64,000 bases of DNA from Escherichia phage vB_EcoM_Alf5, in the sequence record KX377933; one strand, written 5' to 3'. A program made the position numbers and the translations under genes. Every line of letters begins with the position of its first letter. The first letter of the stretch is position 1. The notes under the pieces were generated by a model that did no database searches, was not told the DNA's origin, and saw only the letters and a program-made list of their open reading frames with translations. This document shows positions 17,503-63,814 of this stretch, piece by piece.

Positions 17503-25503
<8,001 letters not shown>

Positions 25504-42320: not shown

Positions 42321-43064
42321 ATGAGTAATATTATCGCATTTACTGGAAAGGCACGTTCTGGAAAAGACACCTCATGTTCTATTGTGAAGAACATCTTAGA
42401 GGATGAGTACGGCTACAATGTTGCTGTAATGGCCTTTGCAGACAACCTTAAACTGTCTGCATCAAAGATATTTGACCTGACTTGGAATGACCTGTATGGT
42501 GAAACTAAAGAGACTCCACAGGTATTTGACTTATCATATCCTGAACTGATGTTTAAAGTTACGGAAGCTATGGAGTTCACCTTCAGAGATGAACGTTACC
42601 ATATGGACTTCAAGCTTATGTCAGAGTTAACCGGACGATTAATCATGGAGCTTAAGAAGGTTGCTAAACCGACTCTATTGACACGTCTGGGGTTTAGCAA
42701 AAAGTATAAATTCTCATCAAGACAAATTCAACAGGTTTGGGGCACTGAAGTTGTCCGTAAAGTAATGGGCGACAAGTTCTGGTCTAAAGACCTTGAAAAA
42801 AGAATGGTTAGATTCCATGAAATGTGCTCACTTAGAAATCAATATGGTTTTGTATTAATCAGTGATTTAAGATTTGACTCTGAAGCTGAATGGCTGAGTA
42901 GATTTGCACACCAAACTATTGAAGTAAAAAGAGACAATGTGGACAAAGTTTCATCACATGTTTCAGAAAATGGGATTTCTACAAAATATGAGCGTGACAT
43001 TATTCATAATAATGGTACTCTTGCAGACCTTGAGAACAAGCTAAGAGCCATCATTAAAGTTTAA
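42321..43064 (+). CDS. deoxynucleoside monophosphate kinase (T4 gp1-like)
   Basis: N-terminal P-loop IIAFTGKARSGKDT, matching the T4 gp1 start as recalled. Confidence 0.55.
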   Translation: MSNIIAFTGKARSGKDTSCSIVKNILEDEYGYNVAVMAFADNLKLSASKIFDLTWNDLYGETKETPQVFDLSYPELMFKVTEAMEFTFRDERYHMDFKLMSELTGRLIMELKKVAKPTLLTRLGFSKKYKFSSRQIQQVWGTEVVRKVMGDKFWSKDLEKRMVRFHEMCSLRNQYGFVLISDLRFDSEAEWLSRFAHQTIEVKRDNVDKVSSHVSENGISTKYERDIIHNNGTLADLENKLRAIIKV

Positions 43065-53959: not shown

Positions 53960-55156
53960 ATGAACAAAGTACAGATTATTAAAAAGAACGGCTCACTCGA
54001 AGAACCAGATATCAAAAAAGTTTTAGCAGCAGTCACTAAGTCAGCTAATAGGGTTGGGTATAAAGAACTACCACCAGATGTTACCCAAGCTCTTGAGTCA
54101 GCATTTATGAGGATTCTGGTAAAATCCACTAAGCAGAATAATTTACTCATTTCAGTAAATGATATTCACAGTATTGTTGAGGGTGCTTTGGCAGAAGTCA
54201 ATCACGAGATTTATGAGTCTTACTCAACATATAGAAATTACCGTAAAGAAGTTGCTCAAAATTGGGATGAACTCTACCAGAAGACCAAAGATACACTCTT
54301 CTTAGGCGACAGAGAGAATGCTAACTTTGACAGCAGTTTAATTTCTACAAAAGGCTCAATTATTCGTGGTTACCTGACTAAAGAAATCTTTAAACAGTAC
54401 CATTTAACACCAGAGGAACTTGAAGCCATTGAAAAAGGGTTTATCTATATCCATGATTTAAGAGACCTAATTTTTGGTGGTATCAACTGTTGCCTGTTTG
54501 ACATTGGTAAAGTGCTGAAAGGTGGCTTTGAAATGTCTGGCATTGAATACTGTGAACCGAAGTCTGTGCTGTCAGCCTTACAGGTTATTGGTGATGTAGT
54601 TCTTTCAGCAACTGCACAGCAATTTGGTGGCTTTACTTTAGCAGAGATTGATAAGGTACTTGTACCGTATGCTAAGAAGTCTTTAGTGTACCACTCAGAG
54701 AAAGCTGAAGAGTACGGAATCCCTAAAGAGCAACACTATAATTACGTAATGGAGCAATTACAGAATGAGTTAACACAAGGTTTCCAATCTCTTGAAATGA
54801 AACTTAACACTGTTCCTTGCAGTCGCGGTGATTTTGCATTTACTACTCTGACATTTGGTCTGTTGGAACCAGATATGCACAATGAAGATAACCGTCTTCA
54901 GTTTATGATTGCCAATACAATCCTTAACGTAAGGATGAACGGGCAAGGAAAAAGCAAAAAACCTGTTGTGTTCCCTAAACTTGTGTATATCTATGAAGAA
55001 ACGAGACATAAGCTTGATGTATGCCAAGCAAGGTTGTTTGAAAAAGCTATTGAGTGTTGCTCTAAAGCTATGTATCCAGATTTCTTAAGTGTAACTGGAC
55101 ATGGTGCTGTAGCAGAGGCTTTTGAGCGTTCTGGTAAGGTAATTTCCCCGATGGGT
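53960..55156 (+). CDS. nrdD: anaerobic ribonucleotide reductase, exon 1
   Basis: 399 codons ending ...GKVISPMG, then TAA at 55157-55159; continues in frame at 55899. Confidence 0.75.
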
Positions 55157-55898
55157 TAACAAGCTCTATAGCTCATCTAAAACGTGCCTAAACAGGGAAA
55201 CTCTACAGATGTAGACAATCCTGTGCTAAATGATGTACGATGTAAGAAACTATACAACATAGGAGTCTTACATGCCAAACTATCACGTCACTGAAGATGG
55301 AAAAGTCTTTAGGGAAAATGGTGTAGAGCTTACGCAGTGGAAATCCAACACTGGGTATATGAAAGTGAGGTTTTACGGTAAGAAGAATCGTGACATGTAT
55401 GTCCACAGGTTAGTTGCTGAGAAATATGTACCTAACCCGAACAATCTTCCAATTGTAAAACATAAGGACGATAACAAACTAAATAACCACGTATCTAACT
55501 TAGAATGGGGTACTCATTCTGATAATGCTAAAGAAGGTTATGAGAATGGATGTTACAAGTTCCACAAGCGTTCATATGCCGTGAAAGCCACACACAAAGT
55601 GACAAAGGAAGTTATTGTTACTAAGTCAATACGAGAGTTATCCAATATACTTGGATACAATCGCAAGACCATCTCTTCAATATTGAAGGGTGTAAAAGAG
55701 CATAATAACTTCGAATATGAGTTTGAATACATCTAAATGCCGAACGACTAACCGTGATGAATGTAGCGGTGTAGGGTCAAGCGACTCGAAATGGTACGCT
55801 ACTTAGAAATAAGTAGAAGATATAGTCTGGACTTACTGGCGACAGTAAGCAGCTTGAATAAAGCGGGGTAAGCTTAGCGAACTTACCTGAACAATAAG
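55157..55898 (+). mobile_element. self-splicing intron (group I inferred) interrupting nrdD, carrying a homing endonuclease ORF
   Basis: 742 nt between exon 1 ending in U (55156) and exon 2; last intron nucleotide is G (55898); boundaries inferred from reading-frame continuity. Confidence 0.6.
55272..55736 (+). CDS. HNH homing endonuclease (intron-encoded)
   Basis: AGGAG before ATG 55272; HNH motif VKHKDDNKLNNHVSNLEWGTHSDN; lies wholly inside the nrdD intervening sequence. Confidence 0.75.
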   Translation: MPNYHVTEDGKVFRENGVELTQWKSNTGYMKVRFYGKKNRDMYVHRLVAEKYVPNPNNLPIVKHKDDNKLNNHVSNLEWGTHSDNAKEGYENGCYKFHKRSYAVKATHKVTKEVIVTKSIRELSNILGYNRKTISSILKGVKEHNNFEYEFEYI

Positions 55899-56846
55899 TG
55901 TAGAGCATTTTTATCACCATACCATAACGAATATGGTGAAGAGTTTTATGTAGGTCGTGCTAACATTGGTGCTGTATCTTTGAACTTACCAATGATTTAC
56001 CAGTATTCTAAAGAGAATGGATTAGATTTCTGGAAAGAGCTTGATAAGTACCTAGAAATGATTCGCAGCTTCCACAAGAAACGTTATGAAATGATTGCTA
56101 ATATGCCAGCAAGTTCTAACCCTCTTGCATTCACACAAGGTGGTCTGTACAAAGGGAATAAGAAACCTACTGACAGGGTTGGTTGGGATATCGTGAAGTC
56201 CTTCACAGCTTCTTTTGGGGTTACTGCGCTTGATGAGCTATCTGTTCTTGCTGAAGGTAAACGACTTCATGAAGTTGGAAGCTGTAGTTTTGCATACGAT
56301 GTTCTGGAATACATCAACATGAAAACTGAAGAGTTTAAAAATGAAGATGGCTTCTTATATGCAGTCTATGGTACTCCAGCAGAATCACTTTGTGGAACTC
56401 AGCTAAAACAGTTCAGAGATATGTTTGGCGTTATCAAAGGTGTTTCTGATAAGGAATACTTTACAAACAGCTTCCATATGAATGTTGCAGCAGACATTAC
56501 ACCATTTGAGAAGCAGGACTTAGAAGAACCCTTCTTCCATATCTGTAGAGGCGGTAGAATCCAGTATGTAAGAGTAGCTAACCCAGAAAACTTATCAGCA
56601 CTTAAGAGTTGTATTACGAGAGGTATGTTGAAAGGTTTCTATCAGGGACTTAACTTTGACTTAGCAATCTGTGAACATTGTGGTAACAGACCAAAGGCTG
56701 ATGTTGAAGAATGTGAGGTTTGTCATTCACACGATATCTCTGTGATTAACAGGGTGTGCGGATATCTGGGATGGACTAAGATTAAAGGTGAATCCCGAAT
56801 GAATGATGCAAAAATCGCTGAGATTCGTGACAGAATTTCTATGTAA
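55899..56846 (+). CDS. nrdD: anaerobic ribonucleotide reductase, exon 2
   Basis: In-frame continuation CRAFLSPYHNEYG...; C-terminal zinc ribbon CEHCGN...CEVCHSHD and glycyl-radical motif RVCGYLG; joined product ~714 aa. Confidence 0.7.
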   Translation, partial: CRAFLSPYHNEYGEEFYVGRANIGAVSLNLPMIYQYSKENGLDFWKELDKYLEMIRSFHKKRYEMIANMPASSNPLAFTQGGLYKGNKKPTDRVGWDIVKSFTASFGVTALDELSVLAEGKRLHEVGSCSFAYDVLEYINMKTEEFKNEDGFLYAVYGTPAESLCGTQLKQFRDMFGVIKGVSDKEYFTNSFHMNVAADITPFEKQDLEEPFFHICRGGRIQYVRVANPENLSALKSCITRGMLKGFYQGLNFDLAICEHCGNRPKADVEECEVCHSHDISVINRVCGYLGWTKIKGESRMNDAKIAEIRDRISM

Positions 56847-59517: not shown

Positions 59518-59529
59518 ACAGATACTATA

Positions 59530-59558
59530 AGGGAACTGTAAAGGTTCCCTTTTTATTT
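59530..59558 (+). terminator. intrinsic terminator
   Basis: GGGAAC-TGTAAAG-GTTCCC followed by TTTTTATTTT. Confidence 0.65.
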
Positions 59559-59568
59559 TGGAGATGAT

Positions 59569-60084
59569 ATGTATCTGTCAAAACTGAAACGTTCGGCTGC
59601 AATGTCAGTTCTAAGACTCAGCTTTGAGGAACGTCAAGAGTTCATTGACTCCCACCAATACGACCCTTCTAACTCGAATCACATGGTTCTTTGGAATCGT
59701 GATAACTTCCGTGAAAGAGCACTTGTCCGTTATTACCCACACTACACAATAGATAACCTGTATGAATGGTGTGTTGTGAAGAACACTATTGCAACACTGA
59801 ACAATCTTTGCAGGTATACAGGTAAGCAAACATTTACATTAGGCCACCACAAACCCGTTACAAAGGGTGGTGAGCATCACTGTGCAAACTGGTTTATCCA
59901 GACTAAACTTGATAACCAGAAGCAAGGAGATAACCTTCTAAGCACACCTAAGATGACCTATGAAGAGCAAGAGAAATATATCAAAAATAATATGCCAGAT
60001 GTGCTTGACAACAACTATACAGATTTGGCAATATCTCTCCTGTTGAAGTTCGAGACAGTTTATAGGGCAACTTATAATGGCTAA
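59569..60084 (+). CDS. HNH-like nuclease (putative)
   Basis: Motif TLGHHKPVTKGGEHHCANWFIQTKLDNQKQGDN. Confidence 0.45.
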   Translation: MYLSKLKRSAAMSVLRLSFEERQEFIDSHQYDPSNSNHMVLWNRDNFRERALVRYYPHYTIDNLYEWCVVKNTIATLNNLCRYTGKQTFTLGHHKPVTKGGEHHCANWFIQTKLDNQKQGDNLLSTPKMTYEEQEKYIKNNMPDVLDNNYTDLAISLLLKFETVYRATYNG

Positions 60085-60355
60085 AGAAAAGTGGGAGATT
60101 TTACCATTAGTCAGTGAAGGAGGTAATGGTTGTGAGATGTACATGATACGTGGTCATGTTCCAGAACCAATTGCACTTGAGATGGTAAACAACTTTACAG
60201 ATGGTTCTTACAAAGACTTAGGAGAGCCAACTATAAAGCAGCAATGGGTAAAGCCTGTACCAGACAGCACAGGTAACTGTAGTGTACTTTACCACGTTGT
60301 AGACCCTGTAAAATGCAAATCTGCAATGGCAGTAACAAACGTAACTTTTGATTGA
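60077..60355 (+). CDS. hypothetical protein
   Basis: 92 aa ORF. Confidence 0.35.
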   Translation: MAKEKWEILPLVSEGGNGCEMYMIRGHVPEPIALEMVNNFTDGSYKDLGEPTIKQQWVKPVPDSTGNCSVLYHVVDPVKCKSAMAVTNVTFD

Positions 60356-60366
60356 GAGAGAAAACT

Positions 60367-61248
60367 ATGAAAACATCTATCCGTGTCACAATTCATTCAC
60401 CGACTAAAGGAACTCATGAAGAAGAGTTTAACATCATCCAATTCCCTTCTGGTGAGATTGGTGGCCACTTTTCACAAGAGCTTGTTGATTTTACTGCTTA
60501 TGCAGCATCATCTATTAACAATGTGGTTATGATTGTAAAGGGTTATGACAAAGACACACTGTTTGCTGTGGCACTGGCTAAAGAAGCAATTGACGATTTA
60601 GTTCCTCATGATTATGCCCTGAAGACTGTCATTTTTTACTACTTGCCAAATGCACGATACGACCGTCACATGTTTAAAGGCGACGCAGCAGCTTTAAAGG
60701 TTTTTGCTAAACAGGTAAATGCAATGGGATTTGGTGCAGTCTGTGCAGTTGACCCTCACAGTTATGTACCAGATAACCTGTTTAACTGCTTCCAAAGTAT
60801 TCCTCAAAAGGAGATTGCAGTCCACTATGCAAATGACCCTCTAATTGATTACTTAGTAGCCCCAGATGCAGGTGCTTCTAAGAAGATTGCAGAGACTGCT
60901 AAAGAGGCGGATAAACCATATATCACAATGTCTAAGGTGCGAAATCTTAAGACTGGAGAAATCACTGGTATGCGAATCCTTGACGATGTTGATTTGACCG
61001 ATAAAACCGTCATGATTCTTGATGATATCTGTGATGGTGGTCGAACCTTCGTAGAGGCAGCTAAACACCTACGTGAAGCAGGTGCAAAACGTGTTGAGCT
61101 TTATGTAACACATGGTATCTTCTCTAAAGGTGTTGAAAACCTTCTTGACAACGGTATCGACCATATTTACACTACAAACTCTTTAGGCGAAGCTAAAGAC
61201 CGTGGCTTAACACATTATGGTCAAGTTACTGTAGCAAACCTTGATTGA
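60367..61248 (+). CDS. PRPP-synthetase-family phosphoribosyl pyrophosphokinase (candidate ADP-ribose pyrophosphokinase)
   Basis: PRTase-type motif VMILDDICDGGRTF and Prs-like VELYVTHGIFSKG; ATG 60367 (ORF-track 60352 is TTG). Confidence 0.7.
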   Translation: MKTSIRVTIHSPTKGTHEEEFNIIQFPSGEIGGHFSQELVDFTAYAASSINNVVMIVKGYDKDTLFAVALAKEAIDDLVPHDYALKTVIFYYLPNARYDRHMFKGDAAALKVFAKQVNAMGFGAVCAVDPHSYVPDNLFNCFQSIPQKEIAVHYANDPLIDYLVAPDAGASKKIAETAKEADKPYITMSKVRNLKTGEITGMRILDDVDLTDKTVMILDDICDGGRTFVEAAKHLREAGAKRVELYVTHGIFSKGVENLLDNGIDHIYTTNSLGEAKDRGLTHYGQVTVANLD

Positions 61249-61257
61249 AAGTTTATA

Positions 61258-61278
61258 GGGGCTTGAAAGCCCCATTTT
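61258..61278 (+). terminator. intrinsic terminator
   Basis: GGGGCT-TGAA-AGCCCC followed by ATTTT; between the two cassette genes. Confidence 0.5.
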
Positions 61279-61293
61279 GAGAGAGATTAAAAG

Positions 61294-63075
61294 ATGACTA
61301 AATCACTTTATGCAGTACCAGCAGGTTTAAACGCAGATGCTTACAAATCTGGTCATGTTTACCAGTACCCTAGTGCAACAGAATATTTGATGTTCAACCT
61401 GACACCACGTAGCGACAAATGGTTTAACAGTCCATTAGCAATTGATGGTGTAGTCGCTTTTGGTATTCAACGTTTTGTTAAAGATTACTTGATAGACCAC
61501 TGGAATGCTACGTTCTTTGAACGTGACAAAAAAGAAGCAATTGACGAAATCTTAGAAGTCATGAATGGTGTTCTGGGCAAAGATGCTATCGGTCGAGAGC
61601 ATTGGGAAGCACTTCACGACTTAGGTTATCTGCCAGTTGAAGTATACGCTGTAGAAGAAGGCACAGTTGTCCCTATGCGTGTCCCAATGGTTGTCTTCCA
61701 GAACACTGTTTCAGGTTTCCATTGGGTAGCAGGGTATCTGGAAGATGCTTTCTCTGCTGAGATTTGGAAGGCTTGTACCATCGCAACTATTGCATTGCAC
61801 TACAAACGTATCTGTAAGAAGTGGGCTGACATTACTTGTGACAATGACTTACATTTACCTTATCAGTGCCATGACTTTGCTATGCGTGGTATGTCCGGCT
61901 TTACTGATGACGCATTTAATGCTGTAGGCCACTTGACCAGCTTTAAAGGAACTGATAGCTTCCCTGCTGTATATACAGCTAAACGCATCTACGGGCAGTC
62001 TTACCCAATCTCTGATATTGGTAGCTCTGTACCAGCCACTGAACACTCTGTAATGTGTGCAAACATTGCTTGGGAAGGTGGTAATGAGTTGATTGAAGAA
62101 GAAAGACGCTTTAAAGGTGAGTTACAAACCTTCCGTCGCTTCTTAACAGAAACTTACCCAACTGGTATTGCAAGTATTGTTTCAGATACTTATAACTTCT
62201 GGAGAACTGTGTCAGAAATCTTACCAGCACTTCGTAAAGAAATTATGGAACGTGATGGTAAGCTGGTAATTCGCCCTGACTCTGGAGACCCTGTACATAT
62301 TGTCACGGGTTATAAAGCAATCCACTTAGAGTGTGCTAAGAAGGCTTATTATGAGCACCTAAGCAAGCTGGAAGCCAGTGACACAATGTTGAATGCTGTT
62401 CTGAACATGAAGCTTGAAAACATCAGCTACGGTATTGCTGGATGGCTACTGTCAGAAGGCTACGAAATGGTTGTTGACAGAGAAGACTTTGAAGCTGCTG
62501 ATACGGTGATGTTGAAAGATGCTTATATGGTTGGTTCTGCAAACGTTGTAACACGTCCTGTAGCTGAAATTGATGGAGCTATTAAGACACTGTACAACAT
62601 CTTTGGTGGAACTATTAACTCTAAAGGGTTTAAGGTACTGGATGAGCACATCGGCCTTATCTATGGTGACTCCATCACGCTGGAACGTGCAAACGAAATC
62701 CTGAAGCGTCTGTATGAAATGGGTTTTGCAAGCTCTAACGTAGTGTTTGGTGTAGGCTCTTACACTTACCAGTACATGACTCGTGACACCTTTGCATTTG
62801 CTGTCAAAGCAACTCTTGCAAGCATTGGTGGTAAAGAGATTATGCTTGCAAAAGACCCTAAAACAGATAGTGGTGTTAAGAAATCTGCCTTTGGTGGTGT
62901 ATCACCTATGTGGGATGGTGAAAAGCTGAAAGCCGTAGATGGCTATGGAATACAGAGTTTTGCAGATGCACTTGAACACCCAGCTTGTGCTTTACGTTTA
63001 GTCTTTAGCAACTCTGAGCAGTTCGGCTACACAACTCTTGGTGATATTCGAAATAATATTGACAAGCAGCTTTAA
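61294..63075 (+). CDS. nicotinamide phosphoribosyltransferase family protein (candidate nicotinamide ADP-ribose transferase)
   Basis: 593 aa; HLTSFKGTDSFPA...SVPATEHSVM matches the NAMPT active-site region as recalled. Confidence 0.75.
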   Translation: MTKSLYAVPAGLNADAYKSGHVYQYPSATEYLMFNLTPRSDKWFNSPLAIDGVVAFGIQRFVKDYLIDHWNATFFERDKKEAIDEILEVMNGVLGKDAIGREHWEALHDLGYLPVEVYAVEEGTVVPMRVPMVVFQNTVSGFHWVAGYLEDAFSAEIWKACTIATIALHYKRICKKWADITCDNDLHLPYQCHDFAMRGMSGFTDDAFNAVGHLTSFKGTDSFPAVYTAKRIYGQSYPISDIGSSVPATEHSVMCANIAWEGGNELIEEERRFKGELQTFRRFLTETYPTGIASIVSDTYNFWRTVSEILPALRKEIMERDGKLVIRPDSGDPVHIVTGYKAIHLECAKKAYYEHLSKLEASDTMLNAVLNMKLENISYGIAGWLLSEGYEMVVDREDFEAADTVMLKDAYMVGSANVVTRPVAEIDGAIKTLYNIFGGTINSKGFKVLDEHIGLIYGDSITLERANEILKRLYEMGFASSNVVFGVGSYTYQYMTRDTFAFAVKATLASIGGKEIMLAKDPKTDSGVKKSAFGGVSPMWDGEKLKAVDGYGIQSFADALEHPACALRLVFSNSEQFGYTTLGDIRNNIDKQL

Positions 63076-63088
63076 AAGTATATGATAA

Positions 63089-63112
63089 GAGGCTCCTACG
63101 GGAGCCTTTTTA
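63089..63112 (+). terminator. intrinsic terminator
   Basis: GGCTCC-TACG-GGAGCC followed by TTTTT. Confidence 0.7.
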
Positions 63113-63125
63113 ATTTCTGGAGAAG

Positions 63126-63473
63126 ATGATGGATAGCCTTTCTATATGGTTTAACAAGAAACCTGTGCAACCAAAATACTTACAAGTTGCCTATACAGAC
63201 ATCCTTGAAGTTCTCGGTAAAGAAAAGTTTGAAAAGTTTTGTGAAGGTATCTACAATCACCACTGCCAATTTGCTACAAAAGAAGGTATGTTTGTCATAG
63301 AACAATTCTTTGGCAGAGACCCAGATGACTACGAAGAGATTAGCTTTGTAATGAAATACATGATAGAGTATATTGAAAATCGTGGATTCGAAGTTAATCC
63401 TGAATTTTATGAACATGAGGGTGTACCTTTAGCAAAAGGTTTCGATGGCATACTCGTTAACTGGACTTGGTGA
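63126..63473 (+). CDS. hypothetical protein
   Basis: 115 aa ORF. Confidence 0.4.
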   Translation: MMDSLSIWFNKKPVQPKYLQVAYTDILEVLGKEKFEKFCEGIYNHHCQFATKEGMFVIEQFFGRDPDDYEEISFVMKYMIEYIENRGFEVNPEFYEHEGVPLAKGFDGILVNWTW

Positions 63474-63814
63474 AAACTATGAAAATCAAAGAAATGAATA
63501 TCAACATTGTCTTAGAAGAACGTTGGGAGAATATTAAGAGACCTGAAGATGGTAAAAAGTTCCTTAACAAAATTTTAGTAGCAGCTAAAGAAGAACTGAC
63601 TGGCAAGATTGCAGCAGCAATCACAATAAAGGTTTGTGTAAAAGGTCTTCCAGACAATCACCAATTTGCGCTTGACGAGTTTAAAGAAAGCTTCTACAAT
63701 CCAAACAAACAGATGCTTGAAAGCAACTTTGCAGTGTCTACAAGTATCGTCCATGACAGAAGCTTTATCCTTTACAAGAATATGAGAGGTGAGTCATGCA
63801 AGCATATTGGATAG
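63467..63814 (+). CDS. hypothetical protein
   Basis: 115 aa ORF. Confidence 0.4.
   Translation: MVKTMKIKEMNINIVLEERWENIKRPEDGKKFLNKILVAAKEELTGKIAAAITIKVCVKGLPDNHQFALDEFKESFYNPNKQMLESNFAVSTSIVHDRSFILYKNMRGESCKHIG

Follow-up and report, generated by a model that had tools for sequence, protein, structure and literature searches.

A probable Felixounavirus copy of the NAD+ reconstitution pathway NARP1 in Escherichia phage vB_EcoM_Alf5

NAD+ reconstitution pathway 1 (NARP1), consisting of Adps and Namat, was discovered and defined on genes 79-80 of phage Bas63 (JohannRWettstein). Deletion of NARP1 renders Bas63 sensitive to SIR2-HerA, and ADPR-pyrophosphate (ADPR-PP, m/z 720.010) was detected in vivo only when the wild-type phage met a defence system (Osterman et al., bioRxiv 10.1101/2024.02.11.579819). 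In an independent study, deleting g79 or g80 singly lowered plating on Sir2-HerA by a factor of 1e4-1e6, and the counter-defence phenotype of the operon is documented in both studies. The in vitro reactions and crystal structures come only from the homologues of the Bacillus phage SpβL1, whose Adps and Namat are biochemically characterised (Namat structures 9W5W and 9W5X; NAR 2026, PMC12774641). Bas63 Adps purified poorly, according to the authors (bioRxiv 10.1101/2024.02.11.579819).

In the mechanism proposed for the pathway, host defence systems (SIR2-HerA, Thoeris, DSR1/2 and similar) cleave NAD+ into ADP-ribose (ADPR) and nicotinamide. Adps would then pyrophosphorylate the free ribose of ADPR with ATP, yielding ADPR-PP, and Namat would exchange the pyrophosphate for nicotinamide, producing NAD+ directly. 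NAD+ could in this way be regenerated without an NMN intermediate and without an adenylyltransferase.

Judged by sequence, a cassette in phage Alf5 is an orthologue of Bas63 genes 79-80 and belongs to this published, already known type lineage. The window analysed here, a 64-kb stretch of Alf5 DNA, is of Felixounavirus (Felix-O1) type and collinear with Bas63 over 60.3 of its 64 kb; Alf5 is a distinct isolate. A Prs-family gene and a NAMPT-family gene lie next to each other on the + strand (Table 1), an arrangement that was originally predicted and on which open reading frames, Pfam and PHROGs agree. The genes have the same order and the same lengths (882 and 1782 nt) as bas63_0079/bas63_0080, and the 45-nt spacer with its hairpin is also shared. 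The pair is kept in 257 phage records, 220 of which cover at least 80% of the locus. We estimate a probability of about 0.9 that this locus represents NARP1 in its Felixounavirus form, based on orthology, synteny, signature motifs including the Namat clamp and catalytic residues, predicted fold and the lack of any detected NMN adenylyltransferase (NMNAT). The original prediction called the pair NARP1-like; this reading was right but understated, as the locus falls within the type lineage itself. Alf5 Namat and Adps, including the divergent N-terminal allele of the latter, probably share the activities of their orthologues.

Table 1 Features of the Alf5 NARP1 locus and its surroundings (window coordinates)
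Feature	Position	Strand	Description
Upstream intrinsic-terminator-like hairpin	59529..59551	+	9-bp stem then UUUUUAUUUU; -12.4 kcal/mol, z -2.2
Neighbour ORF, 171 aa	59569..60084	+	Orthologue of Bas63 gp77, 92% identical; outside NARP1
Neighbour ORF, 92 aa	60077..60355	+	Orthologue of Bas63 gp78, 99% identical; phrog_4726
adps, predicted ADPR-pyrophosphate synthetase, 293 aa	60367..61248	+	ATG start; RBS GAGAGAG upstream
Divergent allele block in adps	60379..60891	+	Codons ~5-175, N-terminal domain; DNA comparison with Bas63
Adps motif NARYDRH	60649-60669	+	Conserved
Adps catalytic loop K190-x-R192	60928-60945	+	K190 in MSKVRN
Adps ribose-phosphate loop	61021-61047	+	DDICDGGRT
Spacer hairpin	61258..61273	+	GGGGCU-UGAA-AGCCCC (6-bp GC stem) then AUUUUG; folding, same in Bas63
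namat, predicted nicotinamide ADPR-transferase, 593 aa	61294..63075	+	Pfam, PHROGs, orthology, motifs, fold
Namat selectivity-clamp loop	61405-61443	+	PRSDKWFNSPLAI
Namat catalytic His251	62035-62055	+	In ATEHSVM
Namat insertion, 15 aa	62065-62109	+	Lineage comparison
Namat R327	62266-62292	+	In VIRPDSGDP; equivalent to SpβL1 R306
Namat insertion, 77 aa	62344..62574	+	Residues 351-427; lineage-specific; sequence and structure comparison
Namat selectivity-clamp helix motif	62755-62787	+	GSYTYQYMTRD, residues 488-498
Intrinsic terminator, strong	63087..63110	+	10-bp stem, U-run; -16.6 kcal/mol, z -3.3

The two genes had been described as bracketed by terminators. This holds for the 3′ side, where the strong terminator directly follows the namat stop codon, and a hairpin is also present in the spacer; directly upstream of adps there is none. 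The 11 nt between the stop codon of the preceding ORF and the adps ATG are unstructured (-1.9 kcal/mol, z +0.55). Going upstream, the first such element is the hairpin two ORFs before adps, so the terminator-bounded unit, for which it forms the 5′ boundary, spans four ORFs (59569-63075) rather than two. The spacer hairpin possibly acts as a partial terminator, an attenuator or an RNA-stability element. An alternative TTG start of adps at 60352 overlaps the stop of the upstream ORF. The first ORF of the unit has no match in the Pfam scan and only a weak HNH-type PHROG similarity; the GIY-YIG identity given to Bas63 gene 77 in PhageMaP was not reproduced. The same work found Bas63 gp77 to counter the Ec67 retron 10-fold.

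The adps product matches Pfam Pribosyltran and Pribosyl_synth as well as PHROGs phrog_619 (E 6e-97). It is 78% identical to Bas63 gp79 (229/293 residues), one of the seed queries of the Adps clade, and scores 97 bits against SpβL1 Adps compared with 59 bits against E. coli Prs. It stays below every NCBIfam Prs equivalog cut-off (best 103 bits, cut-off 296). SpβL1 Adps likewise fails, whereas E. coli Prs scores 532; the broad subfamily model TIGR01251 is barely passed by the Alf5 protein (119, cut-off 113). The orthology and these scores point to the phage Adps clade and not to cellular Prs. Plain identity was rejected as a separator: SpβL1 and FADO Adps reach 28% with the Alf5 protein, and E. 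coli Prs reaches 25%; even the range of 28-34% for the biochemically characterised SpβL1 Adps is barely above the E. coli value, a low similarity that counts against the NARP1 reading. The separation is therefore made only by bit scores, equivalog thresholds and Bas63 orthology. The catalytic K190 aligns with K162 in the HKQRN loop of SpβL1 Adps, where the K162A mutant is inactive. PDB matches include no solved Adps structure, the top ones being archaeal and human Prs. To our knowledge, there are no signature residues by which specificity for ADPR can be told from specificity for ribose-5-phosphate.

The namat product matches Pfam NAPRTase and NAMPT_N and PHROGs phrog_448 (E 2e-201). It is 98% identical to Bas63 gp80 (582/593 residues), with the two insertions and the two clamp elements present in each, and 43-49% identical to SpβL1 Namat. 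A sequence search of the PDB gave 432 bits with SpβL1 Namat (9W5W/9W5X), compared with 180 for Xanthomonas Nampt and ~140 for human NAMPT. In the predicted structure (pLDDT 93.8), the fold is closest to the solved Namat structures: the top Foldseek matches are 9W5X and 9W5W (TM 0.95, E 3e-53), with H. ducreyi NadV and human NAMPT ranking lower. Both comparisons favour the Namat assignment implied by the original prediction over NAMPT/NadV. NCBIfam contains no dedicated Adps or Namat model, and its NAMPT-type equivalog NF006629 has no power to discriminate, since the two Namat proteins both pass it.

The clamp loop carries the residues S-D-K42-W43, the same as in Bas63 Namat. The third residue of this loop is R, K or Y, and the fourth stacks on the adenine if the third is K or Y; in Bas63 Namat the stacking role was assigned to this fourth residue. 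SpβL1 Namat uses Arg40 for adenine stacking, while the Alf5 lineage has K42-W43 at that place. The aromatic residues of the clamp helix are absent from true Nampts, which read GGALLQKVDRD (7YQO) and GAQTYQRNTRD (9KE8). H251 and R327 are invariant in 53 homologues. SpβL1 Namat lacks both the 15-aa and the 77-aa insertion; the latter is also absent from FADO Namat and NAMPTs. The 77-aa insertion is predicted to form an ordered α/β mini-domain (pLDDT about 93-97), and its absence from the crystallised enzyme may count against the NARP1 reading. The SpβL1 genes are likewise adjacent, but abut without the spacer and hairpin of the Alf5 pair.

The absence of an NMNAT near the cassette, part of the original prediction, was confirmed and also holds more widely. 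Fifty unassigned ORFs of at least 60 aa in the window, outside the structural module and the clearly annotated large replication and nucleotide genes, were scanned with Pfam, and none matched a CTP_transf_like/NMNAT, Nudix or NadR-type family. The corresponding scan of the Bas63 region beyond window coverage was also negative, and tBLASTn with the E. coli proteins NadD and NadR, run over all of the window and the complete Bas63 genome, returned only noise (best E 0.34). This distinguishes the locus from NARP2 of Vibrio phage KVP40 (Nampt/NadV and Nmnat/NatV). Both employ a phage NAMPT-family enzyme against NAD+-depleting defences, but NARP2 requires Nmnat and uses PRPP, while the Alf5 enzyme has a Prs-family partner and an adenine clamp, and neither the scanned window ORFs nor the rest of Bas63 yielded an Nmnat, Nudix or NadR gene. 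NARP1-AP (Adps-Adpp-Namat), described in Vibrio phage Gary (bioRxiv 10.64898/2026.01.28.702374), shares the Adps and Namat core and adds the phosphatase Adpp. Membership would call for a Macro-domain gene no more than two genes away from the pair, and the four flanking ORFs in Alf5 contain no Macro or RyR domain.

The database annotation of nearly all relatives, together with the Pfam and NCBIfam family assignments, would fit a boost of classical NAD+ salvage, with PRPP supplied by the Prs-like enzyme, NMN formed by the NAMPT-like enzyme and NAD+ completed by host NadR or PncC/NadD. For the Bas63 orthologue this is largely refuted, as Bas63 NARP1 still overcomes SIR2-HerA in a host without pncC and nadR (bioRxiv 10.1101/2024.02.11.579819). 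SpβL1 Adps gives no product in a PRPP-synthetase assay but forms ADPR-PP from ADPR, and Namat offered both substrates makes NAD+ only. With an adenine clamp that true Nampts lack and a Prs-like protein under all Prs equivalog thresholds, salvage is very improbable as the function of the Alf5 pair. Namat does retain PRPP-to-NMN activity in vitro (bioRxiv 10.1101/2024.02.11.579819), so some classical salvage flux is possible. The cassette also lies just downstream of nrd genes, in a region containing nrdA/B/D/G, glutaredoxin, dNMP kinase, thyA and frd, and the Prs-like enzyme could raise PRPP for phage nucleotide synthesis with the NAMPT homologue being incidental. That hardly seems credible given the strict pairing of the gene with a clamp-bearing Namat across hundreds of phages and the low scores against Prs equivalog models. 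Moreover, the single g79 deletion shows its phenotype specifically on hosts with the defence, just as the g80 deletion does.

A difference from Bas63 NARP1 is a sharply bounded block of ~510 bp in adps with 63-78% DNA identity, compared with 92-98% in the flanks on both sides. In the protein, the N-terminal ~175 residues are 66% identical to Bas63 Adps, while the C-terminal 118 residues are 96% identical. That 34% of these N-terminal residues differ from the genetically tested Adps may also weigh against the NARP1 reading. The two Felixounavirus alleles are 71% identical, no closer to each other than each is to the allele of another genus, and both are widespread; the allele swap is old, an ancient polymorphism. 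Within an otherwise unchanged pathway, the Alf5 allele could alter the function of Adps relative to Bas63. The change might concern its substrate range, regulation or oligomerisation, or let it evade a host factor by which Adps is bound or sensed. We regard this as unlikely. The dN/dS of 0.16 indicates purifying and not diversifying selection, there is no change in the NARYDRH…ALKVFA motifs, in the K-x-R loop or anywhere in the C-terminal substrate-loop domain, and both alleles have near-identical Namat partners. Phage ECML-1 carries an HNH endonuclease inside the adps-namat spacer. Co-conversion from this endonuclease was considered as the origin of the mosaic, but is unsupported because the divergent block has a boundary at either end and does not adjoin the spacer.

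A broader and rather doubtful possibility is that the NARP1 cassette forms the core of a dispersed, still-evolving counter-defence module. Selection by host factors that act on Adps through binding, inhibition or sensing might then underlie its polymorphism, or the polymorphism might mark a change in substrate range or regulation. Felixounaviruses might in addition complete a "split" NARP1-AP through the unlinked gp95, an Adpp-like Macro-domain gene that lies ~7.8 kb downstream in Bas63, past the end of the Alf5 window. Such a gene would escape the published screen, which covered only genes up to two away from NARP1. A split NARP1-AP, if true, could extend protection to aRES-type defences.

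The Alf5 locus matters mainly as a correction of annotation and leaves the current understanding of the NARP1 pathway unchanged. In relatives, the pair is labelled "ribose-phosphate pyrophosphokinase" and "nicotinamide/nicotinate phosphoribosyltransferase". With these old labels and without NCBIfam models for Adps and Namat, standard annotation does not reveal the counter-defence function. Where Felix O1-group phages considered for therapy carry NARP1, they would be predicted to withstand NAD+ depletion by SIR2-HerA, Thoeris and DSR-type systems.

The Prs-family and NAMPT-family ORFs, adps and namat, are separated by 45 nt. ORF calls, Pfam and PHROGs place both exactly where the original prediction had them. 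The product of adps (Adps, ADPR-pyrophosphate synthetase) contains the Pribosyltran and Pribosyl_synth domains and belongs to phrog_619 (E 6e-97), while the product of namat (Namat, nicotinamide ADPR-transferase) contains NAPRTase and NAMPT_N and belongs to phrog_448 (E 2e-201). The proposal that the pair constitutes a NARP1 pathway is correct, as indicated by orthology to the operon of phage JohannRWettstein (Bas63), the clamp and fold of Namat, the Adps scores and the absence of an NMN adenylyltransferase (NMNAT). NARP1 is already known, and the Felix-O1-type lineage is its type example; the value of the present analysis lies in a corrected annotation and some small leads. The 2.9-kb locus occurs in 257 phage records; almost all are of the Felix-O1 type, with Escherichia, Salmonella, Shigella and Citrobacter as hosts.

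Features of the adps-namat region and of other genes in the window
Feature	Position	Strand	Description
Deoxynucleotide monophosphate kinase	42321-43064		Pfam DNMK, E 4e-20
nrdD (anaerobic ribonucleotide reductase), split	53960-55159 + 55980-56846		span 53960-56846
HNH_3 endonuclease ORF	55272-55736		within the segment splitting nrdD
Closest terminator 5' of adps	59529-59551		two ORFs earlier
ORF 5' of adps	59569-60084		orthologue of Bas63 gp77, 92% identical
adps	60367-61248	+	ATG, 293 aa; ribosome-binding site GAGAGAG
adps-namat spacer hairpin	61258-61273		6-bp GC stem, then AUUUUG
namat	61294-63075	+	593 aa
Namat insertion, 15 aa	62065-62109		relative to crystallised SpβL1 enzyme
Namat insertion, 77 aa	62344-62574		relative to crystallised SpβL1 enzyme
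Sigma-70-like match	63059-63086		TTGACA, 16 nt, TATGAT; 11/12, best in region
Terminator 3' of namat	63087-63110		strong; -16.6 kcal/mol, then U-run

Over 60.3 of its 64 kb, the window aligns collinearly with Bas63 (MZ501086, a Felixounavirus) at 87-98% identity, in circular permutation (window 6020-64000 equals Bas63 1-56379). Within the phage collection, no record comes nearer to the window than about 97%. The genes (882 and 1782 nt) and the spacer have the same sizes as in bas63_0079/bas63_0080. Namat is identical to its Bas63 counterpart at 582 of 593 residues and Adps at 229 of 293; the Adps of phage warpig is 100% identical to that of the window, as is the Namat of phage vB_EcoM_Alf5 to the window Namat. 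NARP1 was discovered as Bas63 genes 79-80. Deletion of this operon renders Bas63 sensitive to SIR2-HerA, ADPR-pyrophosphate is seen only with wild-type phage in defence-carrying cells, and the effect of the operon is retained in a host without pncC and nadR (bioRxiv 10.1101/2024.02.11.579819). An independent knockout screen found a 1e4-1e6-fold plating defect on Sir2-HerA for single deletions of g79 or g80; the Ec86 retron and hhe gave smaller effects.

The homologues of Bacillus phage SpβL1 have been characterised in vitro. SpβL1 Adps converts ADPR and ATP to ADPR-PP and yields no product in a PRPP-synthetase assay, while SpβL1 Namat forms NAD+ from ADPR-PP and nicotinamide and prefers ADPR-PP over PRPP (bioRxiv 10.1101/2024.02.11.579819). 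NAD+-depleting defences release ADPR and nicotinamide, from which the cassette would rebuild NAD+ directly, driven by ATP. We consider this the likeliest mechanism, with a probability of roughly 0.9. Some uncertainty persists because the enzymology was performed on SpβL1 rather than Felixounavirus proteins, because in its N-terminal half Adps is not the same allele as the Bas63 one that was tested genetically, and because Namat keeps some PRPP-to-NMN activity in vitro.

A NARP2 system, which combines Nampt and Nmnat, is rejected: the scanned window ORFs and the searches of Bas63 revealed no NMNAT, Nudix or NadR gene. Among 50 unassigned window ORFs, Pfam detected no CTP_transf_like/NMNAT, Nudix, NadR, Macro or RyR domain, and tBLASTn searches using the E. 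coli proteins NadD and NadR returned only noise, both in the window and in all of Bas63. The part of Bas63 that the window lacks holds no NMNAT either, bearing out the predicted lack of this enzyme. No ADENYLYLTRANSFERASE was found in the window scan and the Bas63 genome, and no accessory genes in the window scan; the locus is therefore a plain two-gene NARP1. The lack of Macro and RyR domains among the 50 scanned ORFs rejects, for this locus, the Adps-Adpp-Namat arrangement (NARP1-AP) and the RyDEP-containing variant.

Beyond the window, about 7.8 kb past namat, Bas63 encodes a Macro-domain protein, gp95, annotated as 'putative phosphatase' (Bas63 63278-64063; 18278-19063 in our Bas63 sequence L002). 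It shares 29% identity (E 8e-15) with the Macro protein of Vibrio phage Cody, whose gene lies between adps and namat in the NARP1-AP layout. The Adpp preprint screen covered the two-gene neighbourhood of NARP1, with gp95 outside it; gp95 may be an unlinked Adpp that this screen overlooked.

The Namat assignment draws on sequence and predicted structure. Namat is defined by a catalytic core resembling that of Nampt, together with an adenine 'selectivity clamp' (NAR 2026, PMC12774641). The window protein contains the clamp motif GSYTYQYMTRD (residues 488-498; GSFTYQYNTRD in SpβL1), whereas two true Nampts lack the clamp aromatics (GGALLQKVDRD in Xanthomonas 7YQO, GAQTYQRNTRD in H. ducreyi 9KE8). 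Its clamp loop S-D-K42-W43 is the same in Bas63, where the stacking role was given to the fourth residue (PMC12774641). An alignment of 53 sequences shows no variation at His251 and Arg327 (SpβL1 R306). Sequence scores are 432 bits for SpβL1 Namat, 180 for Xanthomonas Nampt and ~140 for human NAMPT. The AlphaFold2 model (pLDDT 93.8, pTM 0.91) best matches 9W5X and 9W5W (TM 0.95, E 3e-53), with H. ducreyi NadV and human NAMPT ranking behind.

Compared with the SpβL1 and FADO enzymes, Felixounavirus-type Namat has two insertions, of 77 and 15 aa. The longer is predicted with high confidence (pLDDT about 93-97) to fold into an ordered alpha/beta mini-domain. Across 53 homologues, the two sites are hot-spots of length variation (14-91 aa and 7-45 aa). 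Klebsiella, Cronobacter, Kosakonia, Phytobacter and Erwinia have chromosomal homologues (P0068, P0072, P0079, P0086, P0104, P0116) that are 495-496 aa long, lie on contigs as large as 6 Mb and are annotated as nicotinate phosphoribosyltransferase. Since they have the Namat-type motif GS[YF]TYQYNTRD, they may be bacterial Namat, not NadV.

Membership of the Prs-family protein in Adps is supported mainly by orthology. Plain identity is non-discriminating, at 28% for the SpβL1 and FADO proteins and 25% for E. coli Prs, while BLASTP gives 97 bits for SpβL1 Adps against 59 for E. coli Prs. Both the window and SpβL1 Adps fall below all curated Prs equivalog thresholds; E. coli Prs scores 532 bits. 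K190 is the conserved catalytic lysine, equivalent to SpβL1 K162, whose alanine mutant is inactive (bioRxiv 10.1101/2024.02.11.579819). A PDB sequence search found no solved Adps structure, and Adps is not known to have a sequence signature of its specificity.

The DNA identity of adps to Bas63 drops only across 60379-60891, a sharply bounded block encoding the N-terminal domain (63-78%, against 92-98% on either flank). The dS is ~1.4 in the block, 0.39 in the 3' half and 0.16 in namat; dN/dS of the block is 0.16. Window-type and Bas63/ECML-1-type alleles are 71% identical, and the Mooglevirus allele is equally divergent from either (71-76%), while members of the genus share 91-97% identity in the DNA on either side. 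The block has the appearance of an ancient polymorphism that recombination has maintained, each allele being functional.

The cassette had been described as bracketed by terminators. This holds 3' of namat, but not directly 5' of adps, where the 11 nt following the preceding ORF contain no structure. The spacer hairpin is identical in Bas63. In the Felixounavirus ECML-1, a gene for an HNH endonuclease of 163 aa is inserted into the spacer (3391-3882 of our ECML-1 sequence L010), and further relatives give two-piece matches at the locus. The sigma-70-like match, which overlaps the last namat codons and runs up to the terminator hairpin, could be a promoter of the downstream ORFs at 63126-63814. 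Bas63 gp77 was called GIY-YIG and reported as a modest, 10-fold counter to the Ec67 retron (PhageMaP), so the terminator-bounded unit, which includes its orthologue, may be a small counter-defence cluster. The window orthologue gave no hit in Pfam and, in PHROGs, just a weak one of HNH type (HHKPVTKGGEHHCANW motif).

Because a phage dNMP kinase is reported to trigger the NAD+-depleting Kongming defence (PMC12774641), the phage may, speculatively, carry a potential Kongming trigger together with its remedy, NARP1. The interruption of nrdD is likely an intron, as the Bas63 annotation joins this gene from two pieces and lists a homing endonuclease with it.
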